DNA from: Theionarchaea archaeon
Lineage (GTDB): Archaea; Methanobacteriota_B; Thermococci; Methanofastidiosales; SZ-28-30
Reading direction: 5' to 3'
Assembly: GCA_018992685.1 (NCBI GenBank)
Contig: JACVGT010000028.1
Location: 1 to 29,885, forward strand
Length of the DNA: 29,885 nucleotides
Both the position numbers and the translations under genes were made by a program. Under the pieces are notes generated by a model. The model saw only the letters and a program-made list of their open reading frames with translations, searched no databases and was not told the origin of the DNA. This document shows, in pieces, positions 3,271 to 24,639 of this stretch (the stretch's first letter is position 1; each line of letters begins with the position of its first letter).

Positions 3271-3292
3271 TTGTATAAATTTGACCAACCCT

Positions 3293-5797: not shown

Positions 5798-5838
5798 CAC
5801 CGAAAACTTTATATAGTATTGATTAACAATAATGAATA
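5798..5838 (+). promoter_or_regulatory. BRE/TATA promoter with palindromic operator TATTG-ATTAA-CAATA (5817-5831)
   Basis: CACCGAAAACTTTATATAGTATTGATTAACAATAATGAATA; 36/41 identical to 24639-24599 (-). Confidence 0.7.
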
Positions 5839-5849
5839 GGTGAAATGAT

Positions 5850-5948
5850 ATGAAAAAGAAGACACCATTAATAGTTTACATCCAATTATTACTCATCTTG
5901 ATTGTTGAAGGGCTAGCCGGAAAGAGAGGAAAATTCACCGGCCGCTGA
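5850..5948 (+). CDS. Small 32-aa signal-peptide-like/membrane peptide MKKKTPLIVYIQLLLILIVEGLAGKRGKFTGR (not in ORF track)
   Basis: Own promoter, SD AGGTGA (5838-5843), basic n-region plus hydrophobic core, stop followed by CTTTTTCT. Confidence 0.6.
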   Translation: MKKKTPLIVYIQLLLILIVEGLAGKRGKFTGR

Positions 5949-5963
5949 CTTTTTCTAGAAATA

Positions 5964-6449
5964 TTATAGCGCATCAACAACAGCCTTTTCAGAGACAATG
6001 CAGCTGAACCCTCTAGAATCCTCAAGGATCACCGTAACTGCGTCCTTGCCTTCCAGGACATTCACCAATTTCTTCAATATTTTCTTTCCTTTCTTTTTCT
6101 GTTCATGATCACCCCAGCGAATAGCTGTCTTCAGAGCACTCTCCACCCGGCGAAGAATGCCTTCAATGTTAGTGACCACCCCCTCGGATGCAGGACCTGG
6201 ATCTACCCGGACGCCCAGCTCTGGTATCTCTATGACACATGTAGATGACTTTACTACCCGGACACACAGCGCGTCCTCTCCCACAGACAGTGAATATCGC
6301 ATGGGGACCTTCTCCTCAAAAGGAAAGATATCTACAAAGCGATATCCACAAGAACACACAAAGGTAGACTGGAGAACCATACCAAAATAAGGAATATCAT
6401 AGGTTTCAGTAATGAGAGTGAGCGCGCCACCACAAGCAGGACATTCCAT
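5964..6449 (-). CDS. ZPR1-related zinc-finger protein
   Basis: CPACGG...IPYFG...CSCGYR, RVVKS, IPELG..VDPGPASEGVVTNIEG. Confidence 0.92.
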   Translation of the reverse strand: MECPACGGALTLITETYDIPYFGMVLQSTFVCSCGYRFVDIFPFEEKVPMRYSLSVGEDALCVRVVKSSTCVIEIPELGVRVDPGPASEGVVTNIEGILRRVESALKTAIRWGDHEQKKKGKKILKKLVNVLEGKDAVTVILEDSRGFSCIVSEKAVVDAL

Positions 6450-6454
6450 ACGAT

Positions 6455-6880
6455 CTACTCTTTGCTTCTATATATCCGAATATTGGTAGGAGTCACCAGA
6501 ATTTTGCTTTCCCCGATCCCGATGATGTCACCGCCAATTCCTCTGCAGATCCCTTTCAGCTGATCTACGGCTCGCTTTAGCTCCTGAGGATCCCGATTGA
6601 GCAGAGGAGTAATATCGCCCAGTACGATGTTCCCTTCACTGAGTTCCTGGTTCACTTTTTGCACGTCAGCCAGACTCCTCAATTTAACGGGCTTTACATA
6701 GGTGACACCGTACTCTAAGAACTCCTCTGAAAGGATGTCCTCTTCATAGCTGACCGCATCTACATCTCTAAACCCTCGAGACATGGAAAGGCCGCCAGTG
6801 TCCGTATCTTCATAGTATTCCTCTGCGTGCCCTTTTTCTTTCGAGAGTTTGTCTCCGAGCACTTCGCTGAGCTTTTTCAT
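6455..6880 (-). CDS. sepF: Cell division protein SepF
   Basis: ELSEGNIVLGDITPL...LKRAVDQLKGICRGIGGDIIGIGESKILVTP; start moved to ATG 6880; upstream of ZPR1 as in other archaea. Confidence 0.88.
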   Translation of the reverse strand: MKKLSEVLGDKLSKEKGHAEEYYEDTDTGGLSMSRGFRDVDAVSYEEDILSEEFLEYGVTYVKPVKLRSLADVQKVNQELSEGNIVLGDITPLLNRDPQELKRAVDQLKGICRGIGGDIIGIGESKILVTPTNIRIYRSKE

Positions 6881-6931
6881 TCCAACACCGTCAAATAATA
6901 TATCGCATTCACTCCTTATAAACGTTTGCAT

Positions 6932-6960
6932 TGTTGATTAGAATTATCAATTAACAATAA
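6932..6960. promoter_or_regulatory. Two degenerate copies of the TATTG-N5-CAATA operator upstream of the sepF TATA box
   Basis: TGTTGATTAGAATTA (6932-6946) and TATCAATTAACAATA (6945-6959); the 11-mer ATTAACAATAA is identical to 5822-5832. Confidence 0.4.
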
Positions 6961-7042
6961 AGATTCACATTATGGAAAACCGACAGTAGTATTCAACATG
7001 TAGTGATAGGGAAATCGAAACGAATGCATTCAGCATACAGAA

Positions 7043-8365
7043 TCACATCTGAAAGCCCTTAGGAAGTCTAAGCTTCTTTCCTCTCTTTCCGAACTGCTTG
7101 AACAATTTCCTCATCATGTTATACTGATCCAGGAGTTCCTTGACCTCCTTGTTACTGGTGCCCGAGCCCCTCGATATCCTCTTTACGTTGGAGAAATGAA
7201 TCTTCTTGGGAGTTTCCAGCTCTTCTTTTGTCATTGAATCCATAATAACCTTGAATTTCTTAAGCCGCTCTTCAGACATCTCAATCATATCAGAGGGTAC
7301 ATTCATTCCAAGTCCAGGGATCATTTTCATGATCTGCTGGAGGGGGCCCATGGAAGACACCATTTCCAGCTGCTGATACATGTCTTTGAGGTTGAATTTC
7401 CCGGTCATGAATTTCATGGCATCCTTTTCGGTCACGTCGTGGTGTTCAGTAGCTTCCTTCACTCTGGAAAGCAGAGATTCTATGTCACCCAGCCCCAAGA
7501 GACGGGCAACATACCGCTTGGGATCGAATTCTTCTAAAGCATCAATCTTTTCTCCCTCTCCAATCATTTTAATGGGTGCTCCTGTGGCATGCACAGCAGA
7601 GAGTGCTCCACCACCCTTGGCAGACCCATCAAGCTTTGTGATGATAATCGACCCGATGTCCGTAGCCTGCATAAATGCTTCAGCCTGCTGGTAAGCCTGT
7701 TGACCGATCGTACCATCAATTACGAGAATAACCTCTTGAGGGCTAACAGCACGGGATATTCTTTTCATTTCCTCAATCAATCCTGTTTCCTCTTTGTGCC
7801 TTCCCGCAGTATCTACAATGATTAGATCCATTTTTCTATCAGAAAAGTATTTTACCCCTTCTTTGGCCATCTTAATAGCATCTTCTGCTTCGGGATCTCC
7901 GAATACCTCCACTGTCGAGAACTGTTTCAGCTGTTCAAATGCGCCCGGCCTGAAGGTATCAGTACACACAAGACCCACTTTAAATCCTCTCTTCTGAAAA
8001 AATCTGCCCAGTTTTCCGCAGGTCGTGGTCTTTCCAGAACCCTGAATCCCCACCATAAGGAGCTTCGTGGGATGTGCTGAAATTTGAATCTTCTCCTTCC
8101 TGTCTCCCAGAACGGTGGTAATCTCGTCATAGACAATCTTGGTTACATGCTCTGCCCTGGAAATTCCTGGAGGAAGTTTCTCCTTAAGAGCTCGCTCTTC
8201 AATTCGTTCGGTAAGCTCAAATACCAGTTTGACATTTACATCTGCCTGTAGAAGAGCTCTCTGAATATCCCTGCATATCTCTTTCACCAGTTCCTCATCC
8301 ACAACTCCACGGGTTAATTTTCTCAGAGCTGCATTAATGGCTTTTCCCAGATTATCGAGTGCCAT
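7043..8365 (-). CDS. srp54: Signal recognition particle protein SRP54
   Basis: [29 protein letters not shown], Met-rich M domain. Confidence 0.97.
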
Positions 8366-8577
8366 GCTCTTCTTTCCTTCTCACCCTTTAAAAACACTTG
8401 TATAGTGAGATCTTCTTTGAAGACAGATATCATCGTGCGGGGAAGAAACTGTGTTCTGGACTACCAGATTTACATGAAAGTGATAGCTGGAGATCATGTA
8501 TCAAGTTGTTCAGCAAAAATAGAACTAATATTCAAAATAATAGAAACATTTATAAAGGGGAGAGTGTGAGTGATGGC

Positions 8578-9450
8578 ATGGATGTGAACAGCTCAATGAA
8601 CAACCTGGGAAAGACGATAGCTGAGTCATGTGAAGATATCGCTCTTATACTGGGTGCTCTCGCTCATGAGAAACGACTGCATCTGGCTGTAGCACTCTTG
8701 GCAGGTCGGGGTACCTTTGAGGAATTGAGACAGGCAACAGGGCTTGGAAAGACAGCTCTGGCACACCACCTTGCGCTTATGGTAGGATCAGGTCTGGTAC
8801 TCCGAACTGGAAGAGGCCGTTACGAGTTGAGTAGTGATGGCAGAGACCTACTGAACATTGTGGGTAGAACGTATTCGGGCTCGAGACGGAGGAGAGAAGT
8901 AGAAGCGGCAAAACGAGCAAACTACATCCAGAGGATACACACCAAGGAGGTACATACCATGAAGAAACTCAATGTTGAGATAGTCACTCTTGAACCCATG
9001 CATGTGGCGAGCGTTCAAGTCATTAGTGAGACGCCTGAACACGACGCATGGAAGAAGATGCGGGCATGGGCAGAACCCAAGGGACTGCTTGAAGATATTG
9101 AGGAACATCCGGTATTCGGATTCAACAATCCTAACCCTTCTCCCGGGAAAAAGGAGTATGGCTACGAATTCTGGATACAGGTAGAACCTGATGTGAAGTC
9201 AGAGGGTGCAGTAAAGATCAAGAAGATCAATGGTGGGAAGTACGCTGTTACTACCTGCAACCTGAAAGAAGAACTGGAATCGGAGTTCTTCAAGGAGAAT
9301 GGGTACCTAGAGTCTTGGAAAAGGCTCGCAGAGTGGGTCGAAAATAGCAAGTATCGATATGGCAGTCACCAGTGCTTGGAAAAGGCACACGACCCGGATG
9401 CCTCTGACGAGAACCTGATTCTGGACCTGTACTGCCCCATCGAAGAGTAG
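8578..9450 (+). CDS. ArsR-type wHTH fused to a GyrI-like small-molecule-binding domain
   Basis: ALAHEKRLHLAVAL...FEELRQATGLGKTALAHHLALMVGSGLV (ArsR); C-terminal EIVTLEPMHVAS...GGKYAVTT...CLE...DLYCPIEE (GyrI-like); TATA TTTATAAA at 8549 is 29 nt before ATG 8578. Confidence 0.8.
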   Translation: MDVNSSMNNLGKTIAESCEDIALILGALAHEKRLHLAVALLAGRGTFEELRQATGLGKTALAHHLALMVGSGLVLRTGRGRYELSSDGRDLLNIVGRTYSGSRRRREVEAAKRANYIQRIHTKEVHTMKKLNVEIVTLEPMHVASVQVISETPEHDAWKKMRAWAEPKGLLEDIEEHPVFGFNNPNPSPGKKEYGYEFWIQVEPDVKSEGAVKIKKINGGKYAVTTCNLKEELESEFFKENGYLESWKRLAEWVENSKYRYGSHQCLEKAHDPDASDENLILDLYCPIEE

Positions 9451-9458
9451 ATAGTAGT

Positions 9459-9510
9459 ATTTTTTTCTCATTTTCTTTTTATTTTTCTTTTCTCACTTTT
9501 CTTTCTTATT
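9459..9510 (+). terminator. Oligo-T terminator region
   Basis: Multiple T-tracts right after the stop codon. Confidence 0.5.
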
Positions 9511-9583
9511 CATTAGAGAATCACCTCTACTAGAGCACTCTCCTAAACTCACCCTCACCAGGGTAAATCCTTTTCAATGAGAA

Positions 9584-10438
9584 ATGCGTGTCATGAGTAT
9601 GAAAATCACTCCTCTAGCCTTTGATTCCATGGGAGTGCGGAGCATGAGCTGTTTCATACAAGGAGATCGCAACATACTTGTCGATCCGGGGGTGAGTCTG
9701 GCACCCCATCGATCTGGACTACCTCCCCACCAACGGGAATTAGAACAGTTGGCAAAAAAGAGGAAGATAATAAATGAAAAAGGCGAAAAAGCTCATATTA
9801 TTATCATATCCCATTGGCATAATGACCGTCACACTCCTTTCACTACAGAGTTATACGGGTCAGTCACTCTGCAAATGGCCAGTAGACTCTATCAAGGGAA
9901 AAGCATCTTTGGAAAGAGTCTGTCTGGATTGAACTACATGCAGAAGAGAAGAGCTCTTTCCTTCCTTGATTACTGTTCTTTCACTCCCGCAGATGGGCTC
10001 TCCTTTTCCTATGGAGACATGAAAATCACATTTTCTCAGTCTGTTCCTCACGGAGCTGCTCACAGAATACCCGTTATCATGGTGGTTATAGAAGGGGAAA
10101 GAAAGATTCTTCATGCATCAGATACCCAAGGGATATCTGGAATCCAGTACATCCTGCAGGAATCTCCTGATCTTGTACTCATGAGCGGACCCCCTGTATA
10201 CCGTATGAGTTCTGAACAGATTCAAAGAGCCCAGTCAGATATTCTTGCCCTGGCAGATTGTACAGGAGAGATCATCCTGGATCACCATCACCTGAGAGAC
10301 CTCAAGTACAGAGAGCAACTTCCTGAAGTATGGAAGAATACTAAGGTGAAGACTGCGGCAGAATACCTGGGGCATCCCAACCTCCTTCTGGAAGCCAGAA
10401 GAAGAGAGTTATTCAGGGAGCAATGTCCACATCTATGA
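9584..10438 (+). CDS. Metallo-beta-lactamase-fold protein (UPF0282-like)
   Basis: DSMGVRSM, DPGVSLAP..GLPPH, SHWHNDRH, HASDTQG, ILDHHHLRD, TAAEYLG; start may be 9593 or 9599. Confidence 0.8.
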   Translation: MRVMSMKITPLAFDSMGVRSMSCFIQGDRNILVDPGVSLAPHRSGLPPHQRELEQLAKKRKIINEKGEKAHIIIISHWHNDRHTPFTTELYGSVTLQMASRLYQGKSIFGKSLSGLNYMQKRRALSFLDYCSFTPADGLSFSYGDMKITFSQSVPHGAAHRIPVIMVVIEGERKILHASDTQGISGIQYILQESPDLVLMSGPPVYRMSSEQIQRAQSDILALADCTGEIILDHHHLRDLKYREQLPEVWKNTKVKTAAEYLGHPNLLLEARRRELFREQCPHL

Positions 10439-10450
10439 CCTGAATGGAGA

Positions 10451-12025
10451 CTATATCGCTTTCATGATCATTTCTGAAACTCGTTGGGGGCCCACCCCAC
10501 TTATCAGAGTTCCTGCTCGTGGTCCTCGATCTGTTCCAATGACAACTCTGTACAGCACCTGAAAGAATCTCCCTGGTTTCACCTGATGTTCCTGGGCAGT
10601 GAGAAAGATCAGCTCCTGGATTTGTTCACCATCTGTGTACTCAGGTAGCTTCTCAGCCAGTCTCCTGAGAGCACTCCTTTCAGGTTCACTGAGAGAGACC
10701 TCTTCCTCTTCAGCTTCTTCTGCCTCCTCCACCCAGTTTGTGGCATACTCGATCTTCTGACACAATTCTTCGTCTGAAAACTCCTCATCAATCAATCCGG
10801 AACGCATCAGAATATCCTTGAAGAGCGCGAACCTGTTCTCCACAGTCTTGGGCAGCATCCGTGCCAACTGAACCAGGGTGTAGTAGTTTATGAGAAGCCC
10901 CATGTGATCGGGAGGGTGTAAGAAAGTTACATACTCATACAATCGGCGGACATGCTGTTCTTCTCTCTCGTTCGTAATCTTCTCTTTCCCGAAGAAAATC
11001 TTCTTCAGAGAATCCACCTCATTCATGAACTTGGGGATTTCTTCCACATCCACCACACGGGTAGTCCCCAGTCTTTTCAACATGAGAAGACGGAGGCTTT
11101 CTGGTGAACCATACGAAAGCCACACCTGTGGGGTAAACACATTACCCTTGCTCTTTGAAATGCGGCCTCCTCCTCGCTCGATAAATAACTCATAAAAAGC
11201 GTGTACAGGATGACGTATGTGAAAGATTTCCTTGGCTATGTGGTCATTCACTCGAACAGAATCCAAAATATCCTTGCCAAAGGCCTCAAAACTGATGTCC
11301 AGCGCCTTCCAGCGGGCGGCAAATTCTACTTTCCATGTGAGCTTTCCATCCCGAATGGACGCTTCTCCCCGGTGACCGCATCCAGAAACTGTCAGTTCCT
11401 TCCCTGTCTTTGAATCCGCCCCCTTGAATTCCTGGTCACATACATACAGTATTTTCTTTTTCTCCGGAATCCACTCATACGCCCGGGTGGTATAAATCTT
11501 GCCACATTCTGAACAGATGACATTGAAAGGCAGCTGCTCAAGATACTTTTTTTGCCCTGTCATCTCGAAAATGATTTGTCCTGCCTCTTTCCAGTTGTTC
11601 AAGGCCTCCACAACGACATCATCCAAAGTCCCATCCTCATATGCCATGGTTCCGCTCTGAAAGACGAACCTGACACCTACCTTGTCCAATGCATCAAGAA
11701 GCAGGGACGACATGTGTTCCCCATAGCTCGTATGACATTCAAAGGGATCTGGAATCGTGGACACGGGGCGACCAATGTGTTCCTCCAGGAAAGCAGGAAA
11801 TCCCCGGGGCACCTTCCTCAGTCCGTCCCTGTCGTCCGAGAAGGCTACAAACTCACTGGGAACTCCCCTATCCTCTAGGGCAAGAGTAACAGCGTAGGCT
11901 CTGATCCCGTCGCCCACAGAACCCACGTGAGGAATACCTGATGCACCTAATCCGCATTCTGTTCTGTACAGTTTCTTTTCTCTTCTGATTATCTTTTCTG
12001 CAGTCTTGTCTGCCCAGAATATCAC
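10451..12025 (-). CDS. lysS: Lysine--tRNA ligase, class I
   Basis: MIFWAD, SGIPHVG (HIGH-like), CSECGK, FEAFGKD, RISKSKGN (KMSKS-like), GPRAG. Confidence 0.95.
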   Translation of the reverse strand: MIFWADKTAEKIIRREKKLYRTECGLGASGIPHVGSVGDGIRAYAVTLALEDRGVPSEFVAFSDDRDGLRKVPRGFPAFLEEHIGRPVSTIPDPFECHTSYGEHMSSLLLDALDKVGVRFVFQSGTMAYEDGTLDDVVVEALNNWKEAGQIIFEMTGQKKYLEQLPFNVICSECGKIYTTRAYEWIPEKKKILYVCDQEFKGADSKTGKELTVSGCGHRGEASIRDGKLTWKVEFAARWKALDISFEAFGKDILDSVRVNDHIAKEIFHIRHPVHAFYELFIERGGGRISKSKGNVFTPQVWLSYGSPESLRLLMLKRLGTTRVVDVEEIPKFMNEVDSLKKIFFGKEKITNEREEQHVRRLYEYVTFLHPPDHMGLLINYYTLVQLARMLPKTVENRFALFKDILMRSGLIDEEFSDEELCQKIEYATNWVEEAEEAEEEEVSLSEPERSALRRLAEKLPEYTDGEQIQELIFLTAQEHQVKPGRFFQVLYRVVIGTDRGPRAGTLISGVGPQRVSEMIMKAI

Positions 12026-12172
12026 GCGATCACCTGAGTGACTTTCCTTTCATGGTTTATAAGGTTTTAGTAGTCAATAGGTGGTAGTTACAGGTCACCA
12101 GACAATCCCAGATAAGCTCGCACATCGCATCCTGTTCAGACTGCCCTCTTCCAGAGATCTTTGTAATTCAAT

Positions 12173-15100
12173 CTACTTCGGCAGGGTGAAGTGAAAGGTA
12201 CTTCCCAATCCGAATACACTCTCAACCCAGATGTTCCCCCCATGTTGTTCTACAATATTCTTGGCTATGAACAGGCCCAACCCAGTTCTCTCTTCCACGC
12301 GTTTGTATTCGCTCTCTGAAGGAACAATGACAAATGGCTGGAAGATCTTCTCCTGGTCCTCCTGTTTGATACCAATTCCTTCATCCATGATAGCGACTTC
12401 AACGCTGTCTTCATGATCGTAGATCTTTGCTGTTATTCTGGATTCTTCGGGAGAGTACTTTATGGCATTCTCCAGCAGTGCTGCCACCACTTTCCACATG
12501 GCTGTCTTATCTGCCTCCACCGGAGAGAGTTTGTACGGTCCTCGAACTTCAATCTTTTGCTTCCTGAGCTCCCATGAGGGGCGAAGTTGACTGATGACAT
12601 CCTGAATCAGCTCACTGAGAGATATCATCTCCATTTCCAGGTCTTTCTTCCCCTTCCTGGAGGATAGAAGCGTATTGTCAATTATTTCTCCTAGTCTGTT
12701 TGAGCTGGCCTGAATCAAATTGATTTTCTCCTCCAATTCGGGGGCAAGGTGTCCATAACGGCCCATCTTTATCATTTCCAGGTATAATTTGATGGAAGTG
12801 AGAGGTGTTTTCAGTTCATGGGAAGCAATGTCAATGAAGTCTGATTTCACCTGGTTTGCTTCCCTCAACTGCTCATACAACCGAGCCTTGTGAATGGCCA
12901 GTACTGCCTGGTCCAAGAATCCGCTGATAGCATTGATATCTGCCTGTTCCAGCTTCTTCTTGCTTCCAACCACAAGCATACCCACAGGTTCCTCCTCGGC
13001 AGTCAACGGAAAGGCAGCGACCCAGTTCACATTCCCCATTCTGTACAAGACTCCCGCCAGTTTACGCAGGGACTCCTTGTCCGTGTAGTCCTTCAGGAAT
13101 GCAGTGATGTCGCTGGTGATCAGAGGGCACTTCTCGTCTATAACCTTTTTCAGCTGACTCCCCTCAAACAAGGGGATCTTGTATTTTTCCGGGCTGAATC
13201 CCACCAGCTTCGTAATTCCATCCAGCAGCCTGTGACTGATGTCTATTTCCTTCACCAGAAGATACCTCTTATCTTCACTGAGCAGGTAGACAGAAGGTGT
13301 GGTATACCCAAAGACTGAACTCATTCCCTTTACCAAAATCCTGAAAATCTCTCCCAGATCCATGGTGGAGTTTAGCGCATTATTGATCTCCTGCAACAGG
13401 CTGAGCTGTTCATTGGTCATCTTTAGCTCCTGTGACTTTCTCTCCAGTGCTTCGGAGTAGTTGAGCCTCTCCAGGGCATCTCCCGCCATTTGCCCCACTG
13501 TTTTCAGAATAACGAACTCATGATGTGTCAGAATGCGAGGACTTGCCACAACGAAAGCTCCTCTGCATTTTTTTGCCACGTACATAGGAATGCAGAAGGC
13601 TGACTGTAGAACAGCCAGGTCTTCCACCTGGTTGTACCTGGGGTCTCCCAGCCACAATTCCATGAACTCCTCCATGGTCAGGGGATGAACCTCCTTCTCG
13701 TCCTGCAACAGAACATTCTGTGTGATTAACGCAATGTTCTCTCGGACACCTTCTCTGTAGACTGCCCTTTCTGCAATACTGATCCTATCAAGCTGAGGTT
13801 TGGTTCCCGTGAGCTGCTCCATTCTCTTCTCGACCTTCTTCACCAGATTGTCCGGTTCAGTGTACACCAGTCGTGCTGAGGTGTCCTCATCCCGGCTGAT
13901 CACTGCGAGATACTCGTGGCCCAGCTGAAACAGGTGCTCTCCCACCAGGTCCATCACTTCTTTTTCAGTCTGGGTTGTATACAGCTTTTCTGCCAGCTCT
14001 CGCAAGGTGGTTTGTTCTTTCAGATGGGACTGCAGCTCTATTGAAGTTCTCTGGATAATGTCATCAAGGTGGGCATGATGAAAAGCCATCGCCAGGTGCC
14101 CGGAAATAGATTCCATCCTGTGGAAGTCGTCCTGTCCCAGAACGAGTCGGGATCCCACAATCATCACACCAAAGACTTCATTCTCTACAGTCAGGGGAAG
14201 AACGACTGCTGACCTCATCAGAGTCTTCTCGAGAATGCTGGTTGCTGCACCCTGGGCAAGAGCTCCTCCAAATATCTGACCAAGAGATTCTTCTTGCACC
14301 AGATAGCTCCTTTTCTTCTCTGCCGCCTTCCCAATGAGACTTCCCCTGTCCAGGTTGAACACGATCTCCTGAGGTTCTTCTTCCAGATCGAGTATGTGAC
14401 GGATTGCAGGAGAAGCAGCGAAACAAGGCAATCTGACTCTCTCATCCTCTTCGAGGAACACGATAGCTGCAATATCAGAATCAAAAATCTTTTGAACTTC
14501 CTGGACTGCCAGGTTCAGAATCGTGCTGAGATCTTGCCCAGTATTCAATGCATGGTTTATCCTTGACAGGAGCCTGAGATCTTCATTCCTCTTCTTTATT
14601 TCTGTTTCCTTCTCCTTTATCACGGTCAGATCCATGAATACTGATATGACACCCGTGAAGGTATCATGGTCAAACAGGGGCGTGGCTCCTACCATGACCG
14701 GTGTAATCTTGCCACTCTTAGCAATAAGGGCTGCTTCATACTGGCCGCTGGCGCCCTTCTTTCTTCTGGAACTTTCCGCCTTCACTTTCTCAAGATAGTC
14801 GGGAGCTACAAATTCTCTCCAATGATGACCGATGATTTCCTCTCTCGGGGCTTCCAGCAGGTTCTCCACTGTGGAATTGACATACGTGATAATGCCCTTA
14901 TCATTTTCAATGAACAGAGCATCATGCAGGGATTGGATGATGTTCTCACTGAACTCCTTCAGGACTCGTATTTCCTCTTCAGCTTTTTTCTGGGCAGTCT
15001 GATCCGTGAAAACAGTGAGGTTTCCTGTATATGTCCCGTTTTCAAAGAGAGGAGTAGCACTGACAATGACCGGTATTGTAGACCCATCTTTGCGCACCAC

Positions 15101-15889
15101 ACCTGCTTCGTACTGGCTCTTTACCCCCTGGGGTCTCTTCCTGGTTTCCGCTTCCACCAAAGAGAGACTCTGGGGACTGACAATGCAGGAATAATGCTTA
15201 CCAAGGATCTCGTCTGCAGAATAACCCAGCATTTCAAGGATTTTTGGATTGACGAACATGATTTCTCCTTGAGTGTTCTCCATGAGAATACCTTCTTGCA
15301 CTTCCCGCACGATTCTCTCCGAAAAATCTTTCTGCTCCTCGATTTCTCTCATTCGGCTTCTTATGTGAATAAAAGACTCTACGACATTCCTGAAAATGGA
15401 AAAAAGCGGAATTTCCTTTTCTGTGACGTCATCTCGGCCCAGAATCAGGACAGAACGGTGATCCGGCAGGGGGATTACGGCCCCTCCATTGGGAATGTAC
15501 TCGGTGCAAAGGTCAGGGGGCACTCCCAATCCACGAGCCAGGTGCCTAAAATCACACGGAACCACGGCGCCGTCTTCGGGTAATTCTCTCTGGAAAAGGG
15601 TATCTCGTGTCAGTTTTTTACCTCTAGAAGCGGTTTCCATGATTTCTGTTCCCTTTTCTGCTGGCAATGACGGAAAATGAATAGCCACAAGTCTCAAATT
15701 CTTGCTGGGAAGATCATCCCGCAGGAAAACACTGTGAAATCCTGCTTTCCCCAGCTCCTCAGAAAGGATAAGATGAATGTCTCTGGCATCTACCGTTCTC
15801 TCAAATGCTGCCAGTGCAGCACTCAGAGAAGAAAGCACATGCTTTCTCCGCTCACTTCCTGAATTCTCAGAGCTCGTCACGGTCACCAT
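12173..15889 (-). CDS. Cytoplasmic PAS-PAS-GAF-GAF-GAF sensor histidine kinase
   Basis: Two PAS repeats (GEIMFVNPK, GIITYVNST), three GAF-like segments, H-box SHELKTPLTSI, N-box LLENAIKYS, DEGIGI, GLGLFIAKNIV; SD AAGGAG. Confidence 0.9.
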   Translation of the reverse strand: MVTVTSSENSGSERRKHVLSSLSAALAAFERTVDARDIHLILSEELGKAGFHSVFLRDDLPSKNLRLVAIHFPSLPAEKGTEIMETASRGKKLTRDTLFQRELPEDGAVVPCDFRHLARGLGVPPDLCTEYIPNGGAVIPLPDHRSVLILGRDDVTEKEIPLFSIFRNVVESFIHIRSRMREIEEQKDFSERIVREVQEGILMENTQGEIMFVNPKILEMLGYSADEILGKHYSCIVSPQSLSLVEAETRKRPQGVKSQYEAGVVRKDGSTIPVIVSATPLFENGTYTGNLTVFTDQTAQKKAEEEIRVLKEFSENIIQSLHDALFIENDKGIITYVNSTVENLLEAPREEIIGHHWREFVAPDYLEKVKAESSRRKKGASGQYEAALIAKSGKITPVMVGATPLFDHDTFTGVISVFMDLTVIKEKETEIKKRNEDLRLLSRINHALNTGQDLSTILNLAVQEVQKIFDSDIAAIVFLEEDERVRLPCFAASPAIRHILDLEEEPQEIVFNLDRGSLIGKAAEKKRSYLVQEESLGQIFGGALAQGAATSILEKTLMRSAVVLPLTVENEVFGVMIVGSRLVLGQDDFHRMESISGHLAMAFHHAHLDDIIQRTSIELQSHLKEQTTLRELAEKLYTTQTEKEVMDLVGEHLFQLGHEYLAVISRDEDTSARLVYTEPDNLVKKVEKRMEQLTGTKPQLDRISIAERAVYREGVRENIALITQNVLLQDEKEVHPLTMEEFMELWLGDPRYNQVEDLAVLQSAFCIPMYVAKKCRGAFVVASPRILTHHEFVILKTVGQMAGDALERLNYSEALERKSQELKMTNEQLSLLQEINNALNSTMDLGEIFRILVKGMSSVFGYTTPSVYLLSEDKRYLLVKEIDISHRLLDGITKLVGFSPEKYKIPLFEGSQLKKVIDEKCPLITSDITAFLKDYTDKESLRKLAGVLYRMGNVNWVAAFPLTAEEEPVGMLVVGSKKKLEQADINAISGFLDQAVLAIHKARLYEQLREANQVKSDFIDIASHELKTPLTSIKLYLEMIKMGRYGHLAPELEEKINLIQASSNRLGEIIDNTLLSSRKGKKDLEMEMISLSELIQDVISQLRPSWELRKQKIEVRGPYKLSPVEADKTAMWKVVAALLENAIKYSPEESRITAKIYDHEDSVEVAIMDEGIGIKQEDQEKIFQPFVIVPSESEYKRVEERTGLGLFIAKNIVEQHGGNIWVESVFGLGSTFHFTLPK

Positions 15890-16196: not shown

Positions 16197-16301
16197 GCTA
16201 TCAACTCTGGCAACCTATGGAAAGATGCCATCCCTTCCCACCACCACTTATAAGTTCTTCTGTTTACCGGTTGTAGTGAGCATCTTCACAATCTTGGAAC
16301 A

Positions 16302-17836: not shown

Positions 17837-17867
17837 TCATGTGAAGACTGAAGCCGAATTTATAAAG

Positions 17868-19019
17868 CTACCGCTCGCGGGTTTCTCCTTTTCTCCCAAA
17901 AGCAAAAAAGAAGAAGAGCCCAATGCCCACAAGCATACAGGCCAGACTGAGAAAGGCGGCCTGATAGCTCACAACTGAGATGAGAATTCCAGTGATAATT
18001 GGGCCTGAAGCCTGCCCCACATCCATAATCATGCTGAGAACTCCCAAAGCAGATCCATATGCACCCTGTGACAAATCTGAAACCAATGCTGAGGTGGAAG
18101 CTGTGACAGTGGCCAGACCAAGACCGTACAGGGATGCTGCGCCTCCCAGAGCCAGCCAGTGACGATTGTAAGGAATAATGATCAAAGAAATAGCTCCCAG
18201 CAGTACGCCCAAACTGATGGAGGGTAGTCTGCCTGCCGAGTCAGAAAGCTTTCCCATGACAGGCTTGGTGAGCAAGGTGACTACAAGCTGGATGGTAAAG
18301 ATAACCCCGATATAGGAAGGAGTAATTCCAACAGAAACAGCATACAGGGGGAGAAATGTTTCAAGACCTCCAAACGTGAAATACTGGCACGCCTCAACAC
18401 TTGTGGTAATCATGATATCTTTGTTTGCCAGAACGGCCCTGTAATCTTTACGTTCTGTTTGAGGAGCTTGAGGAGACGTATCTTCCAGGAATGTGCCTAG
18501 GATGAAGGCAATCAGTCCCCCTGCAGCACAGGCTATGTAGACGCTGGAGAAACTTCCCAGAGTCAATAAGAATCCTCCCGCAGCAGGTGCCATCATCCTT
18601 CCCACCATGGTGGCAGAAGAGAACAGACCGAGGCGAGCAGCTCTGTCCCCACTGTATCGTTCAGCAACTGCTGCCATGGCTACCGGGCCGAAGATTGCCG
18701 TTGCCACTCCATGATAGAACCGTACGACAGCCAGCTGCCACAATTCGTTCACTATCAAATACATAAAAGGGGCTGTTGCAAAAACAAAGAGAGCGATGTG
18801 CAGGATACGTTTTCTTCCATACAGGTCGGAAAGAACCCCTGCGGGCATACTGATGAGGATACCAGGAATGGTGGAAGCAGCTGATATAACACCAATATAC
18901 TCTTTAGATGCTCCCAGAAAATCAGCGAATAGCGGCAGCACCGGATTCTTGGACATTGTAGAAGAGAAAATTGCACAAGCACCAATGATACTCAACAACC
19001 AGAAATAGTTCCTCCTCAT
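17868..19019 (-). CDS. MFS transporter
   Basis: About 12 TM segments; motif A GVLSDLYGRK and its repeat GKLSDSAGR. Confidence 0.92.
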   Translation of the reverse strand: MRRNYFWLLSIIGACAIFSSTMSKNPVLPLFADFLGASKEYIGVISAASTIPGILISMPAGVLSDLYGRKRILHIALFVFATAPFMYLIVNELWQLAVVRFYHGVATAIFGPVAMAAVAERYSGDRAARLGLFSSATMVGRMMAPAAGGFLLTLGSFSSVYIACAAGGLIAFILGTFLEDTSPQAPQTERKDYRAVLANKDIMITTSVEACQYFTFGGLETFLPLYAVSVGITPSYIGVIFTIQLVVTLLTKPVMGKLSDSAGRLPSISLGVLLGAISLIIIPYNRHWLALGGAASLYGLGLATVTASTSALVSDLSQGAYGSALGVLSMIMDVGQASGPIITGILISVVSYQAAFLSLACMLVGIGLFFFFAFGRKGETRER

Positions 19020-19134
19020 GGAGCACGATTGGGCTGTCCATTTAAGAATCTTTGCTCATCCTGATGCCACAGGAATGCGTGAGCATTTCTCGCGTGCCGA
19101 ATCCAGAACGTGGTGTCCTTCAGAGCAGAGATTT

Positions 19135-20508
19135 TCAGTACGATCCCAAAGGAACGTGCTCATATTTCGTACCCACCCTTCTATACAGAAACGCCGCACT
19201 CACCAGTATGACTGCTGAAATACCAAGTAACCACAAAGAACGCTCCATCAACGAGAGAATGCTCATCACCAGCAGTACGGGGAGAATCAGAAGGAGATAC
19301 CTCGCAAGAACAGCGCCATCAAACAACCGTGTATTGGGATACAATCCACACAGCCAGGCAGTAACGGCTGCAACATAGAACGATGTGGAGCCCATGATCA
19401 CGATGGACAATGGAACAAGATACAGTGCCTCCAGTATGTACCCGAGAACAACCAGATATACCATGGCAACAGTAAAGGAGAACAGCAGAAACAACATGAT
19501 CTTCCTCTTGATAACAGCAGAAGTGGTAATGGGAAACGTGCTGAGAGAAGAAGGAGCATCAATGTTGTTCAGCCAGCTGTACACCAAGGTACTCAGATAC
19601 CCAATGAATCCAGCATAGAACACCAGAGGGATATCAATACGGAATTGGAATAATCGTCCTGAAAAATAGAAGATCCCGTAGATGAAGATCAGAGGGAAGA
19701 GATAGGAGGTAGCAATAATCTGCCAAGTACCACTTCTCCGGACATCGATAATTTCCTTGGCCAGAACAGGATCCATTCTGTGAAACAGGTTAGTCCTGGA
19801 GAACAGTTTTTTTCTGGCTCGATACACAGGCTTGGTGATGGCCAGGGAGAGTATTGAAAGAGCCACAAAAATCCCTGCTGAGAGGAAGGCTGCCCCCCAG
19901 TCTCCGTAAACAAACGACACCAGAGGAGGGAAGTCCTCTACAGAACCAGTTCCCACCATCACTGCTGCCACCACCAGCATGCCAACAAGGGACAGTCTGC
20001 TGCGCACATAAAGGGAAGAAACAAGGAAGCTCACTGAAACCCCTATCAGGAAAGAAAGAAGCGATGAACCAAAGAGGCGGGCAACTACACCCAAAGAAAC
20101 ACTAAACGATAGGAATAATCCCAGGAATAACGGTACAATGGTCAAAAACAGGTAATAGACGATATCCTTTATGTAGAACCAGGTGAGAAGCTTCCGGAAT
20201 GATATGGGCAAAATAGTGTACATGTGAATCAGCAAGTGAGCATCTCTGAACCAGGTATTGGCCACCTCATCTGCAAAGAATCCAAAAGCACCAACAAACA
20301 GCCCGTACACCACCATGAGAACGTGGAAAGCAACAAGTAATTCAGACATCTCAAAAGCTTCCCTGAACAGTGGAAGCAACCATCCCATGATAACCCCAAT
20401 AACCACCAGAACTGCAGGAAAAGCAAAGAATAGGTTTTTCGAACTGAAATAACTGGTGAGCATCCGCCATTCTTCTTTCAAATTGAGGGATAACAGAGTA
20501 TCAGCCAT
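19135..20508 (-). CDS. ABC exporter permease-like membrane protein
   Basis: Polytopic membrane protein with two similar halves, overlapping the ATPase gene by 8 nt. Confidence 0.7.
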   Translation of the reverse strand: MADTLLSLNLKEEWRMLTSYFSSKNLFFAFPAVLVVIGVIMGWLLPLFREAFEMSELLVAFHVLMVVYGLFVGAFGFFADEVANTWFRDAHLLIHMYTILPISFRKLLTWFYIKDIVYYLFLTIVPLFLGLFLSFSVSLGVVARLFGSSLLSFLIGVSVSFLVSSLYVRSRLSLVGMLVVAAVMVGTGSVEDFPPLVSFVYGDWGAAFLSAGIFVALSILSLAITKPVYRARKKLFSRTNLFHRMDPVLAKEIIDVRRSGTWQIIATSYLFPLIFIYGIFYFSGRLFQFRIDIPLVFYAGFIGYLSTLVYSWLNNIDAPSSLSTFPITTSAVIKRKIMLFLLFSFTVAMVYLVVLGYILEALYLVPLSIVIMGSTSFYVAAVTAWLCGLYPNTRLFDGAVLARYLLLILPVLLVMSILSLMERSLWLLGISAVILVSAAFLYRRVGTKYEHVPLGSY

Positions 20509-21214
20509 GGGTTCTCACCAGGGTGAAAAATACATCTTCCAGGGTGGGTCCTTCCCGGAGCAACTCGGAAAGCGTTCCCGATTTGAGTACAGTTCCTTTT
20601 GAAAGAACCGCAATCCGGGAACACAGCTTCTCTGCCATCTCCAGTATATGGGTGGACAGGAAAACTGTTCCTCCTTCTGTTACATATTCATTAAGAAATG
20701 TTCTCAACTTCTTTTGCATCAAAGGGTCAACATCTGCAAATGGTTCATCCAGAAACACCAATGACGGTTTATGAATAAATGCCGCTGCAAATGAGAGTTT
20801 TTGCTTCATTCCCTGGCTTAAATCCTTGCATAGTACATTCTCACTCTCATTGAGTTCCACAAAATCCAGCCAGAAGGCAGCCTGGCCCTCATCAACATGT
20901 CTCACGCCGCACACAAACTCCAGGTATTCAGTCACTGTGAGGAAACTCGGAAGTAAAACAACTTCCGGGACTATTCCCACAGCTTTCTTCACCTCAATGT
21001 GATGGGTTACATCGATGCCCAGAACACGCGCCTCCCCTGAGTCAGGTGGTACCTGTCCGGTGAGCATCTTTATGGTAGTAGTTTTCCCTGCTCCGTTTGG
21101 CCCCAGGAATCCAAAGAACTCTCCCTTGTTCACAGCAAGCGTAAGGTTCTGGACAGCCCTGGTGGGCCCATAGGATTTCGAGAGGTCCTGTACTTCAATG
21201 ACACTGGTATCCAT
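20501..21214 (-). CDS. ABC transporter ATP-binding protein
   Basis: GPNGAGKTT, LSQGMKQK, VFLDEP, STH. Confidence 0.95.
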   Translation of the reverse strand: MDTSVIEVQDLSKSYGPTRAVQNLTLAVNKGEFFGFLGPNGAGKTTTIKMLTGQVPPDSGEARVLGIDVTHHIEVKKAVGIVPEVVLLPSFLTVTEYLEFVCGVRHVDEGQAAFWLDFVELNESENVLCKDLSQGMKQKLSFAAAFIHKPSLVFLDEPFADVDPLMQKKLRTFLNEYVTEGGTVFLSTHILEMAEKLCSRIAVLSKGTVLKSGTLSELLREGPTLEDVFFTLVRTHG

Positions 21215-21447
21215 GCCTGTGGTGTTCTTCCTAGATACTTATAAACCCTTTGATCCTGGTCAGTCACACCAGAGAACCGCTCTTTCAGTGTCTGAGCTTC
21301 CTTGAGAAGTAGAACCAGATTATCCACCGAAGTTCAAGACCAAGAAGCTGTGCAATGAATCATGACGCAGAAATACCAGTAAAAGAGAGAGAAGAAATCA
21401 AACCCAAAAAAAATGTTGAAAAGAAAACTAAAAGGAAAAGAAGGAAT

Positions 21448-24400
21448 TTATATTCTTCCTAGGCAGCTGAGCACCTCATACACTTTCATCAGGGCTTGTA
21501 TTGCTTTGGTGGATGCTTCCTTGCACTTGCCCATCTCAAAGTACAGCTCCGCCTGGTCAATGTACATTTCTGCTTCTCTGAGAAGTTTCTCACAGAGCCT
21601 CACATCCCAGTTCTGCTTCTTCTTCTCCTCGAGCTTTGTTCTGGTTTCATACAGCAGGTTCTTGACCTTCTGGATAGTCCTCTCTACCTTGGAGCATTCA
21701 GAACTGAGTTTGGGCGACTCTGATTGATCGTCCTGGTCCTGATCGTCCTGATCTTGATCCTGATCATTTTGGTCCTGATCGTCCTGATCTTGATCCTGAT
21801 CATTTTGGTCCTGATCGTCTTGATCTTGATCCTGATTGTCTGAGCTTTGCTGTCCCTCTGTAATCGTCAGTGTATTGGACTTCTGCTCGGGGACTGTGAG
21901 GACGTCCCCTGTGCTGGTATCCACACCCTGTGCTGTTCCTGAAAAGACTACTGTTCCTTGCTTGACTGCGACATATGTCCAGAGGATAATTTCAAAGCTG
22001 TGACTGGGAACGCTAATAGATGTTCGGGATGGACCTGAAACGAGTTCTACAGCCCCCGTTCCTGAGACAGTCAATTCTGATGGGACTACGTTTACAGCTT
22101 CTGCCTGCCCAATGTTCTGCACCGTCATAGCCACGGTAAGAAGATCACCTTCTGCCACCTCTCTCGGAGTAACGATGACAAAGGCGGTCAGAATTGCAGG
22201 TGAGGCGACACCCACTGTTGACATGGCAGTGCTGGACACGAAAACCTGGCCTTCTGCTTCTCCTGAAACATAGCCGGTGAACACCACCGTTCCCCCCTGT
22301 GTGCCAGGGGTGGCTGCATACTTCCACTCAAATGTCTTTGTTTCACCCGGTTCCAGGGAGATGGGGGGTTTTGGTAAGGGACCAATCACCAGGCTGGCAG
22401 CTGCTGTGCCGGTCGTTGATGTGGACAGTGTTGAGGGCGTGACGTCTTCCAGAGTTACCTCTCCTGTGTTGTAGACCTCCATGGTCATGGTAATGGTAGA
22501 CCCTTCGATCACTCCGTAGAGCAGTGCTGAAATGTTTCCAGGTACGTCCGGTTCTATTGTTACAGTCACCGTTCCTGATTCAGCTTCTGATGACTCAATC
22601 TCTGCTCCAGTATCTTCTGCTCCTGCAGCGCTTCCTGTAAATATCAGTGAAGTACTCTCTTCTGCAGTGACTTCATATTCCCAGACAAAAGCTGCTGATT
22701 CTCCTCCGGGAATGTCCTGAGTCTCAGGCTCGGGGCCAGAGATCAACGTCACAGCATCGGGTGCTACCAGTGTCGGTACCACTGATTTCGCTAGTGCTTC
22801 CATGGTGTTGGTAACAGTCATGATGACTGTTATCTCATCGCCTTGTCCAGCTTCTGAACGGTTGGTTGAAATATCACAGTGGAGGGGTTGATCATCCTGT
22901 TCTGAAGGCTCTGCGGTTCCTGGTTCATCATCAGCCTGGTTGTCATCCGCTTCCTGTTCATCATCTTCTGATTCTCCAACAGTGAAGGTCACTGACTCTG
23001 TTTGACTCCAGTTCCCGACACTGTTCTGAGTCTTGACATCTAGGGTGTGATCCCCATCAGCCATATCAGTTGTGCCAAAGTCGAGGGTGAATTCCTCTTC
23101 AGGTTCATCAAAGCTACCGTCAGACGGAGTGGCTTGTTCCCATTCTCCCTGATCGACTCTGTACTGGACATCAGAAATGGTGTTCAGGCTGATATCGGTC
23201 TCTCCTGTCAAAGGATTCTGGTTAGGCAGTGGTGATTCCTTGGCTGTCCCAGCCCAGGATGTGTCCTGTTGGGTCAATGTAATAGCAGGCACTGTGTCAA
23301 AGACATCCAGGATTCCGTCAGAATCACTGTCACTCCAGCCCAGCTGTGTTCTCGCACTGACTTCGATCTGAGTATCCAGCATCCGCTCTCCTTTCATGAG
23401 AGAGGACACAGTAGACGTACAGGCTGTGCCATTCCACTCTGAATTGGTGGTTTCTCCACCGAGATATCCTGATGCTGTACTCTGTTCCACTTCGCTAGTG
23501 CATGCCTGATCCAATGCCCAGAAAACGTGACAGATCTCGTGGGCAATGACAGTGTCCATATTGGCAATTCCCCAGATGGAGTTGGAATAGGTAATAACCA
23601 CTCTCGGCCCACCCAGGAAAGAATAAGCTGAGTACCCGTCTGCAAACGCATTGTCTTCGTCTTCTGAATCATCCACCACAAAGATGATGAATGCCCAGTC
23701 CGAGTCATACGTATTCCGAAGATCATTGACGTATGAGTACTCATTGACCACATAATTCGGGCTTCCATATCCCAGGTGGTGCATAGCCTGCTCTTCCCAC
23801 AGGTCGTCATCAGTGTGGGGTCTTGTAATTGGTTCATAACCTACAGGTACATTGAAGTGCCACTCATATACAAAGGACAGCTGAGCTGCGGGTTCCTGCA
23901 TGAGTAGCCAGTTCAACCCATTCTGGATCTCTGAAACTACATTAACTTGCTCCTCTTCTGTCCAGTTCTCTGTGTCATCATCGATTGTTCCATTGCTCTC
24001 CAGGAACAGAACACTGACTGCCACAGTTCCTGCCAGATAGGCTGAGGTGTCCTGAAATCCTGCTCCGTACGGAAGCGCACCGTCATACTGAGAGGGCATC
24101 AGATACGATGAAATGTCAGGAAGAAGCTCACAATCATCTGGAGGAGGTTCAGGAGACAAGGGGGGTTCGTTCAACCCTGCGTCCACCGATAATCCCATGT
24201 AGTTGTAGTTCCATGCAGTCACTGGGTACAGCACGTCTTCAGGCCACTCCTTGCCTTCCGTATCTACTGGTCCTCTGTACACAGAAATACTGGGATCTTC
24301 AATCAGTGTCTCTTCTGCCTCCACAGAGAGCTTTCCAATAATAACTTCCGGCGGAAATACATGCATGACTTCTCCGTCAAGGTCCCGTATCAAGTCGCAG

Positions 24401-24558
24401 ACAGTGTCAATCTCTGGACCTTCTCCGTCCAGCAGTACAAGTGCTGGCAGATCTTCCAGGTCAGACTCTGATGCTACCGTCACTCCTGAAACCAGGAGTA
24501 GTGCTATCAATGAAAGCGAGTAGGTTACTCTCTTGCGGTTCGTCTGGTTTTTCTTCAT
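21448..24558 (-). CDS. Large secreted acidic zinc metalloprotease-like protein with Ig-like repeats and a C-terminal helical domain
   Basis: Signal peptide, prodomain-like N-terminus, VIAHEICHVFWALD (HExxH, 23541-23527), Ig-like VQYRVDQGEW module, three similar beta-rich repeats (TVTNT/EVYNTG/TVQNIG...FxWxY), D/Q linker; SD AAGGAGGT. Confidence 0.75.
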   Translation of the reverse strand: MKKNQTNRKRVTYSLSLIALLLVSGVTVASESDLEDLPALVLLDGEGPEIDTVCDLIRDLDGEVMHVFPPEVIIGKLSVEAEETLIEDPSISVYRGPVDTEGKEWPEDVLYPVTAWNYNYMGLSVDAGLNEPPLSPEPPPDDCELLPDISSYLMPSQYDGALPYGAGFQDTSAYLAGTVAVSVLFLESNGTIDDDTENWTEEEQVNVVSEIQNGLNWLLMQEPAAQLSFVYEWHFNVPVGYEPITRPHTDDDLWEEQAMHHLGYGSPNYVVNEYSYVNDLRNTYDSDWAFIIFVVDDSEDEDNAFADGYSAYSFLGGPRVVITYSNSIWGIANMDTVIAHEICHVFWALDQACTSEVEQSTASGYLGGETTNSEWNGTACTSTVSSLMKGERMLDTQIEVSARTQLGWSDSDSDGILDVFDTVPAITLTQQDTSWAGTAKESPLPNQNPLTGETDISLNTISDVQYRVDQGEWEQATPSDGSFDEPEEEFTLDFGTTDMADGDHTLDVKTQNSVGNWSQTESVTFTVGESEDDEQEADDNQADDEPGTAEPSEQDDQPLHCDISTNRSEAGQGDEITVIMTVTNTMEALAKSVVPTLVAPDAVTLISGPEPETQDIPGGESAAFVWEYEVTAEESTSLIFTGSAAGAEDTGAEIESSEAESGTVTVTIEPDVPGNISALLYGVIEGSTITMTMEVYNTGEVTLEDVTPSTLSTSTTGTAAASLVIGPLPKPPISLEPGETKTFEWKYAATPGTQGGTVVFTGYVSGEAEGQVFVSSTAMSTVGVASPAILTAFVIVTPREVAEGDLLTVAMTVQNIGQAEAVNVVPSELTVSGTGAVELVSGPSRTSISVPSHSFEIILWTYVAVKQGTVVFSGTAQGVDTSTGDVLTVPEQKSNTLTITEGQQSSDNQDQDQDDQDQNDQDQDQDDQDQNDQDQDQDDQDQDDQSESPKLSSECSKVERTIQKVKNLLYETRTKLEEKKKQNWDVRLCEKLLREAEMYIDQAELYFEMGKCKEASTKAIQALMKVYEVLSCLGRI
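21735..21836. repeat. Coding tandem repeat, 36-bp unit x ~2.8 (D/Q/N-rich 12-aa unit)
   Basis: GGTCCTGATCGTCCTGATCTTGATCCTGATCATTTT at 21735, 21771 and partially at 21807. Confidence 0.9.
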
Positions 24559-24598
24559 AATGAAACCTCCTTGAAGTTAGGCTTGATGCCATTATCTT

Positions 24599-24639
24599 TA
24601 TACATTATTGCTAATCAATAGCATATAAAGCTTTCGGTG
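24599..24639 (-). promoter_or_regulatory. BRE/TATA promoter with palindromic operator TATTG-ATTAG-CAATA (24620-24606)
   Basis: Minus strand CACCGAAAGCTTTATATGCTATTGATTAGCAATAATGTATA; near-copy of 5798-5838. Confidence 0.7.

Follow-up and report, generated by a model that had tools for sequence, protein, structure and literature searches.

Small archaeal repressors that act between the TATA box and the transcription start include MDR1 of Archaeoglobus (DtxR family), LrpA (Lrp/AsnC family) and the ArsR-like Phr of Pyrococcus. On the scale of a whole genome, the closest described system is that of TrmBL1 (Tgr) in Pyrococcus and Thermococcus, members of a sister order to the one considered here, with its palindrome TATCAC-N5-GTGATA (the Thermococcales glycolytic motif, TGM). 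Of the 28 TGM sites described for TrmBL1 in Pyrococcus (PMC4706686), 21 are placed immediately after the transcription factor B (TFB) recognition element and TATA box (BRE/TATA), and TrmBL1 at such downstream sites represses in vitro by inhibiting the recruitment of RNA polymerase, upstream sites being activating. Here we analyse a contig of 29,885 nucleotides from a Theionarchaea archaeon (JACVGT010000028.1; "the window" always means this whole stretch), which contains two near-identical 41-bp promoter/operator modules built around another N5-centred palindrome, TATTG-N5-CAATA. One module precedes the gene of a 32-residue micropeptide and adjoins the divergent gene of a 130-residue winged helix-turn-helix (wHTH) protein; the other precedes the gene of a 1036-residue exported surface protein. 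Like the TGM, the palindrome recurs across the genome, mostly directly downstream of BRE/TATA and at a few sites upstream of it.

A script count gave 36 of 41 identical positions between 5798-5838 on the plus strand and 24639-24599 on the minus strand. The two sites thus read as the preliminary description of this DNA had given them, and the palindrome, which it had placed downstream of the TATA box, starts in both exactly 1 base past the TATA octamer. The description had also allowed that the similarity might be a relic of gene duplication. The flanks of 60 bases on each side are unalike (10/60 identical upstream, 14/60 downstream), and we therefore reject such a relic and regard the 41-bp likeness as a discrete module, laid out as BRE (ACCGAAAnC), TATA octamer, 1 spacer base, 15-bp palindrome and then AATGNATA. 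The window contains two copies of TATTG-N5-CAATA, at 5817-5831 and 24606-24620, where 100 shuffles gave an expectation of 0.02; a 35-base composite pattern likewise occurs twice, the expectation being 0.00. The features on which the argument rests are as follows.

5798..5838, plus strand: module 1, with the BRE at about 5799-5807, the TATA box TTTATATA at 5808-5815 and the spacer G at 5816
5817-5831, plus strand: palindrome of module 1, TATTGATTAACAATA, then AATGAATA; 13 further promoters of this genome have it in the same register
24599..24639, minus strand: module 2, with a BRE, the TATA box TTTATATG at 24629-24622 and the spacer C at 24621
24620-24606, minus strand: palindrome of module 2, TATTGATTAGCAATA, then AATGTATA
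5850..5948, plus strand: gene of the 32-residue micropeptide, MKKKTPLIVYIQLLLILIVEGLAGKRGKFTGR, stop codon at 5946-5948, ribosome-binding site GGTGA at 5839-5843
21448..24558, minus strand: gene of the 1036-residue exported surface protein, with a 5' untranslated region of about 40 nt containing GGAGG
5343..5735, minus strand: gene of the 130-residue winged-helix candidate regulator, ATG at 5735; the open reading frame (ORF) list starts it at TTG 5741 (132-residue form)
5758..5765, minus strand: TATA box serving the wHTH gene (reading TTTATATA), with the ATG 22 bases further on

The genome to which the window belongs (G000; 3.03 Mb in 45 contigs, the window being contig C21) holds ten copies of TATTG-N5-CAATA, about 3.3 being expected from pentamer frequencies. 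Six of the ten directly follow a BRE/TATA and a seventh abuts a BRE from upstream (C13:136). The full symmetric form is TATTGAT-N-ATCAATA, of which a perfect copy stands at C10:8542. Searches with TATTGATNATCAATA gave 8 matches at up to 1 mismatch (2 for the reversed control) and 30 at up to 2 mismatches (3 for the control). We then compared pairwise the 24 bases past the TATA box of the 75 strong BRE/TATA promoters of this genome (66 in a first list). The bulk of pairs have 6-7 of 24 bases in common, against up to 23 of 24 within a cluster of 14 promoters, each of which shares at least 15 of 24 bases with at least 6 others, in the same register and with the same 1-base spacer. Because the other 61 of the 75 are unrelated after the TATA box, the palindrome is no part of the general core promoter, and we rejected that explanation. 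The genome-wide scan relative to TATA boxes that had been proposed as a check thus found the motif both enriched and linked to promoters. The sites and what lies behind them are listed below by contig and position.

C21:5817: the 32-residue peptide of the window
C21:24620: the 1036-residue protein of the window
C22:36500: a 180-residue protein, then a 665-residue S-layer protein (PF05124, 5.1e-24; TIGR01564, 3.7e-17)
C25:17942: a 277-residue S-layer-like protein (PF05124, 1.7e-6)
C24:24475: a 125-residue protein, then a 2183-residue DUF11/CARDB protein
C14:57233: an 841-residue protein with weak FG-GAP matches
C5:70970: a 137-residue membrane protein, then a 561-residue ferredoxin-domain membrane protein
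C27:17745: a 91-residue hydrophobic protein
C13:9151: a 135-residue protein
C22:35168: a doubtful 52-residue ORF only
C1:287373 (plus), C10:8542 (plus), C3:83981 (minus) and C24:22472 (minus): four sites without a plausible ORF
C14:53146: a weaker site, ahead of the gene of an 834-residue HerA-ATPase/TrmB-wHTH fusion protein

The theme of this regulon is the cell envelope: S-layer proteins, giant surface proteins with immunoglobulin-like (Ig-like) repeats, a membrane micropeptide and RNA-like units that are short and CU-rich. In the large target proteins, signal-peptide-like N-termini were recognised by eye. The preliminary description had proposed an undescribed regulon co-controlling exported products. 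Its protein targets are indeed mostly exported or surface proteins, but the set is far wider than the two genes first linked. Two operon-first genes, those of the 125-residue (C24:24497-24874) and 180-residue (C22:36542-37084) proteins, have no family assignment; the latter has a winged-helix-like N-terminus by eye and is confined to genus g1.

In the leaderless targets (the genes of the 125- and 841-residue proteins, six micropeptide genes of family f2 and the fusion gene of the related genome G003), the ATG lies 21-22 bases past the start of the palindrome. This would place +1 about 23 bases past the TATA box, a distance that is usual in archaea, with the palindrome covering about -22 to -8. 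The geometry at the wHTH gene is no different (TATA at 5765-5758, ATG at 5735), and since its TATA box stands only 22 bases ahead of the ATG, its mRNA too should be leaderless.

The order in question, Methanofastidiosia/Theionarchaea by the source names of homologues, is represented in our sample by families f1 to f4 (34 genomes including that of the window, which belongs to f1), with f5 as a sister family. A search of 41 genomes for exact TATA-N-TATTG-N5-CAATA was positive in 32, among them 31 of the 33 other genomes of the order. By family, the window's genome aside, it occurs in 3/3 (f1), 6/6 (f2), 16/17 (f3), 6/7 (f4) and 0/7 (f5) genomes, for a total of 65 matches in the 41 genomes against 4 for the reversed control. 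A looser 24-mer search was positive in 26 of 41, and each of the three closest relatives carries 9-12 BLAST copies of the module of about 40 bp. The arms TATTG and CAATA are near-invariant, and the centre varies by family: f1 has ATTAG, f2 and f4 have ATGAG or its complement, and g4 has mostly TATTA. Asymmetric variants stand in both orientations to the TATA box (TATTGCTCATCAATA in f2, TATTGATGAGCAATA in f4). Besides C13:136, the palindrome lies directly upstream of the BRE at two g4 loci, L105 and L106.

Orthologous promoters retain the element. Those of the 1036-residue protein keep BRE/TATA and palindrome in G001 (TATCGATTATCAATA) and G002 (TATTGATTACTAATA), although their upstream flanks have diverged, and a paralogue in G003 has two overlapping sites, shifted downstream. 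S-layer genes with the palindrome were found in G001 and G002 (f1), G029 (f3), and G006, G009 and G015 (f4). These observations bear on the idea of a promoter cassette that has been copied around by duplication or recombination, its modules having no factor dedicated to them. The great likeness of modules within one genome (up to the 23 of 24 bases noted above) and the four that drive no recognisable gene would agree with it. The module flanks are unrelated, however, the arms are conserved over four families while centre and surroundings diverge, and orthologous genes keep the element across the order, which largely refutes the idea and leaves it very improbable.

The best candidate for the regulator is the 130-residue wHTH protein, since its arrangement with the palindrome recurs in f1, f2 and f3 and its distribution matches that of the motif. 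Its gene is single-copy in 34 of 34 genomes of the order and was not found in 99 other genomes of the phylum sample (E <= 1e-8). A search of 5.8 billion protein clusters returned 57 relatives, all close (E <= 4e-39), under source names of Theionarchaea or Methanofastidiosa/Methanofastidiosia archaeon, with one Methanomicrobia; the genus names attached to them are inconsistent. The synteny of the gene carries the most weight: it is divergent from a small-peptide gene with a palindrome promoter in G000 and G002 (f1) and at all six f2 loci, where the palindrome lies 103 bases from the wHTH start and the peptide mRNA is leaderless. The same divergent arrangement of wHTH gene, palindrome and micropeptide gene is seen at 15 of the 15 g4 loci with upstream sequence, about 331 bases apart, and a palindrome-like site stands 84 bases upstream of the wHTH gene at 2 of 4 f4 loci. 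The lone palindrome of the f2 loci (L046, L058, L059, L061-L063), between the wHTH and peptide genes, is flanked on each strand by a TATA-like element 1 base away, in the manner of a single operator shared by divergent promoters.

In the protein, a wHTH (residues 1-65) precedes three long helices (68-129), a layout also seen in its AlphaFold2 (AF2) model, which has a predicted local distance difference test score (pLDDT) of 78. Recognition helix and wing are invariant in 14 orthologues (R33, T35, V37-E41, G55-K58), matching the invariance of the palindrome arms, and we count this in favour of the wHTH protein. In the C-terminal part H90, H101 and Y108 are invariant, as is E6 near the N-terminus. 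A two-copy model scored 0.68, whereas none of 3 controls exceeded 0.00. The pass mark is reached by 20 of 30 solved same-chain pairs and by 1 of 23 solved single chains, counts that are rough when made with an alignment of one's own. The dimer runs agreed in at least 71% of contacts, with a partner pLDDT of at least 79 and an interface at residues 67-130. This modelling supports a symmetric homodimer through the C-terminal helices, as a palindrome would need. Foldseek gave no match to the model at E <= 0.001, and the wide structure search (VIA) matched only the generic wHTH of residues 1-63 (best Z 8.4, Lrp/AsnC heads), so that neither search found a structural match for the three-helix C-terminal domain.

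From the motif, its register, enrichment and conservation, its targets and the synteny of the wHTH gene we infer the binder, the sign of regulation and the existence of a signal. We incline, with modest confidence, to the reading that a homodimeric winged-helix repressor, most likely the 130-residue protein, has the palindrome as its operator and controls an envelope regulon through it. The dimer would occupy about -22 to -8 of the target promoters, leaving BRE/TATA open to the TATA-binding protein (TBP) and TFB and blocking the recruitment of RNA polymerase, which together with transcription factor E (TFE) needs the covered DNA. As all 14 promoters have near-consensus BRE/TATA, they would be strong by default and would be held down, and switched, together. 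Where, at a few sites, the palindrome immediately precedes a BRE, it may act positively.

The choice of binder has several points against it. In f4 the wHTH loci are without the peptide and 2 of 4 have a degenerate site only; and G003, of the same family as the window's genome but another genus, has the wHTH gene with no palindrome or peptide within 700 bases. The match in phyletic distribution is statistically weak, given the non-independence of related genomes. Module 1 has its palindrome about 50 bases upstream of the TATA box that serves the wHTH gene, so that autoregulation is not required. At the operator position of its own promoter the wHTH gene has a degenerate core only (GGAGGATGATAAGAA), with the 9-mer ATTGTTAAT across the start. 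The half-site over the wHTH start on which the preliminary description leaned is present at 5734-5742, but it is kept only in G002, of the same genus, with one change, and not in other families, and we do not count it as evidence. The 9-mer ATTAACAAT has 21 copies in the genome, three of them in the window within 1.2 kb (5734, 5822 and 6950).

There are, besides, many other winged-helix proteins in the genome, among them at least seven TrmB-family matches over the cut-off (15 matches to TrmB models in total). It is possible, if rather doubtful, that the palindrome is a true operator of the surface regulon read by another binder, such as the HerA-ATPase/TrmB-wHTH fusion protein, the wHTH-micropeptide pair being a mere target. 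TrmB-family proteins are the known binders of the architecturally similar TGM, and the fusion protein is also order-wide (32 of 33 relatives), with the motif at its promoter in 4 of 4 f1 genomes. Yet no motif promoter precedes the fusion gene at the six f2, f3 and f4 loci examined, whereas the 130-residue wHTH keeps its adjoining palindrome in f1, f2, f3 and partly f4, and no other candidate has a conserved adjacency. The fusion gene itself (C14:50643-53144, minus strand; L070:641-3145) joins a HerA-like ATPase (DUF87, HerA_C) to a C-terminal TrmB-type winged helix.

Two further wHTH-like proteins were considered as an order-wide regulator and rejected on their distribution: the 180-residue protein of C22 (3 of 41 genomes) and a 77-residue winged-helix protein confined to g4. 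The latter occurs in 17 of 17 g4 genomes, mostly as two paralogues each, behind TAATGAT(T/A)ATCAATA (loci L010, L012, L014-L016, L018, L020-L024, L035 and L037), and may be a subordinate or autoregulated factor.

That the regulator represses is also open to argument. S-layer genes, expected to be strongly expressed, are oddly chosen targets for a repressor, and the rigid 1-base spacing, fixed in 14 of 14 promoters, exceeds what steric blocking needs and might indicate that the palindrome acts positively or architecturally. It might then be a core-promoter element of highly expressed envelope genes, read by an initiation cofactor or a TFB paralogue together with RNA polymerase and TFE. The genome has two TFB genes, and in a PDB profile search the best match of the wHTH protein was the TFE winged helix, weakly (E 0.005). 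Near-perfect BRE/TATA promoters should, however, need no extra help; two-fold symmetry over 15 bp is what a symmetric dimer, and not a basal factor with an orientation, would lead one to expect, and the asymmetric variants of f2 and f4 are found in both orientations to the TATA box. To our knowledge, all archaeal factors that bind between TATA and +1 repress, as TrmBL1 does. We consider such a positive element unlikely. Among the basal factors of this genome, a frame of 317 residues at C7:82214-83143 (minus strand) holds the two TBP repeats 441 bases apart, with a long insertion between them.

Taken as a repressor-operator system, the arrangement would work like TrmBL1/TGM and is yet no member of it: the wHTH protein has no TrmB domain, the motif and the regulon are others, and searches of Thermococcaceae found neither the motif (7 genomes) nor the protein (97 genomes). 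PF01978 is not among the 14 Pfam families matched by the 132-residue form (E <= 0.01), nor is the protein among the 15 TrmB-model matches of the genome, and the sugar-binding domain of TrmBL1 is lacking. Unlike that of the TGM, the spacing to the TATA box is rigid, and the regulon comprises surface proteins, a micropeptide and short RNAs instead of sugar metabolism. With MDR1, LrpA and Phr the system shares a small dimeric HTH protein and an operator overlapping the region occupied by RNA polymerase, both predicted here; those repressors control one or few operons each, not an envelope regulon. In contrast to their DtxR, Lrp/AsnC and ArsR-like families, the wHTH protein matches only generic HTH models in Pfam (MarR_2, 7.3e-8; HTH_IclR, 1.6e-7).

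MarR proteins are likewise winged helices of about 130-140 residues that bind palindromes as dimers, as is predicted here. MarR_2 is above its cut-off for our protein (32.9 against 27 bits), though over residues 5-55 only, and MarR dimers form from N- and C-terminal helices, unlike this protein, with its N-terminal wHTH and a predicted interface at residues 67-130. The best MarR-type Foldseek matches to the model are weak (E 0.1, TM score 0.34). Fe_dep_repress scored 18.3 bits (E 0.0027), below its cut-off of 26, with the C-terminal domain unmatched. The invariance of E6, H90 and H101 in the orthologues is a DtxR-type lead only, and so is the resemblance of the g4 variant TAATGATTATCAATA to what we take to be the bacterial Fur box; for the wHTH protein itself we found no family evidence of a Fur or DtxR kind. 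Titles among the literature matches listed gave no description of promoter control of an archaeal S-layer or surface proteome, and those on Theionarchaea and Methanofastidiosa among the matches listed concern metabolism and phylogeny, with nothing on the palindrome system. The candidate regulator family, its operator and its envelope regulon appear to be lineage-specific, and are well supported in silico.

The micropeptide has a basic N-terminus, a single hydrophobic helix and a short charged tail, and looks like a single-pass membrane micropeptide. Across families the peptides have this build in common with little sequence likeness; the tail past the helix, by inspection, counts 4-12 residues and differs by family (KRGKFTGR; RGEKSSSSRFVY; RVRD). 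Because the tail is so short and variable, a membrane micropeptide fits better than a secreted signal. The peptide-signal/protease circuit that had been suggested finds no support, the 1036-residue protein itself matching no protease family.

The four ORF-less units of the window's genome would yield short CU-rich transcripts with a CCTCC/CTCCT stretch followed by a T-run. They lie at C1:287373 (L078:190-290), C10:8542 (L076), C3:83981 (L077) and C24:22472 (L069:1360-1460). The unit on C1, which G001 and G002 have kept, contains the hairpin CCGGGGC-UUCG-GCCCCGG (fold z -2.2); TTGTCTCCTAYC is common to it and to the f4 locus L124 (minus strand). Family f4 also has a conserved ORF-less unit behind the palindrome (L025, L027 with two copies, L028 and L030), about 2.4 kb from the wHTH gene, in which GCTCCAAC is followed by the hairpin GAATCCAG-loop(CCACC)-CTGGATTC and a T-run. 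At the g4 loci L105 and L106 a hairpin and CCTCC follow the BRE/TATA. The stems of the f4 and g4 units are invariant and hence offer no covariation, and Rfam returned for nine loci with ORF-less targets one chance-level match only (E 0.51). In each of the co-regulated RNA-like units of 30-90 nt there is a run of CCUCC/CUCCU, similar to the anti-Shine-Dalgarno sequence at the end of 16S rRNA. It is tempting, if quite speculative and improbable, to see the wHTH protein, the micropeptide and the CU-rich RNAs as an envelope-homeostasis circuit without a described archaeal counterpart, in which the micropeptide, whose operator beside the regulator gene is the best conserved, would be a membrane-side sensor or titrator of the regulator and the RNAs would damp the translation of envelope mRNAs. 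If that were true, S-layer and surface output would be set both transcriptionally and translationally by one lineage-specific switch.

The 1036-residue protein begins with a signal-peptide-like N-terminus (by inspection), followed by a domain with HExxH...D, CARDB/DUF7507 Ig-like repeats, an acidic D/Q/N repeat and, at the C-terminus, a helical tail. In Pfam it matches CARDB/DUF7507 only, and no peptidase family was found for it in Pfam, in NCBIfam or among PDB sequences. The N-terminal domain is one of a large family that has no name (2588 representatives at E <= 0.001), in which H241, E242, H245 and D251 (fragment numbering) are invariant in 5 of 5 close and 41 of 41 wider homologues, the aspartate lying six residues past the motif. 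Four of these 41 relatives weakly match Reprolysin_5 (best E 3.4e-7) and 2 each match Reprolysin_2, DUF2268 and Peptidase_M7; a PDB profile search with the 41 sequences gave 0 matches. The AF2 model of the domain reached a pLDDT of only 38.9, and the ESM Atlas returned unnamed clusters only, none scoring above 0.89. We therefore regard a zincin-like peptidase domain as plausible yet unproven, and the giant secreted metalloprotease first proposed keeps its invariant HExxH without a match of its own to any curated protease family. Two genes follow on the same strand; the third entry below lies elsewhere in the window, upstream of the SepF gene.

20501-21214, minus strand: ATP-binding cassette (ABC) ATPase, directly downstream of the gene of the 1036-residue protein
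19135-20508, minus strand: 457-residue multi-pass membrane protein, downstream of the ABC ATPase
6944..6963, minus strand: weak motif-like element in the SepF-ZPR1 promoter (position weight matrix score 16.6), with the third copy of ATTAACAAT at 6950

To judge by spacing, the first two may form an operon with the gene of the 1036-residue protein. The regulon membership of the SepF-ZPR1 element is doubtful, and cell division may at most be weakly tied to the regulon. The SepF gene (6455-6931, minus strand) has a leaderless promoter, and TAATCAACA immediately before its ATG is kept in G000, G002 and G003. Elsewhere in the window, all on the minus strand, are genes of a 737-residue membrane protein with a C-terminal CHAT/C25-like protease domain (26528-28741), a 1238-residue PAS/GAF histidine kinase (12173-15889) and a 384-residue protein with no Pfam match (2134-3288).

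The analysis brings to notice conserved micropeptide and small-RNA genes that gene callers had missed, and points to strong, probably switchable promoters for future genetic tools. The pairing of module and regulator would be accessible with the recombinant 130-residue protein and synthetic 41-bp DNA, with no need of cultivation. What the analysis provides for a whole uncultured order is a sharply defined cis-element, together with a short target list and a prime candidate for the regulator.

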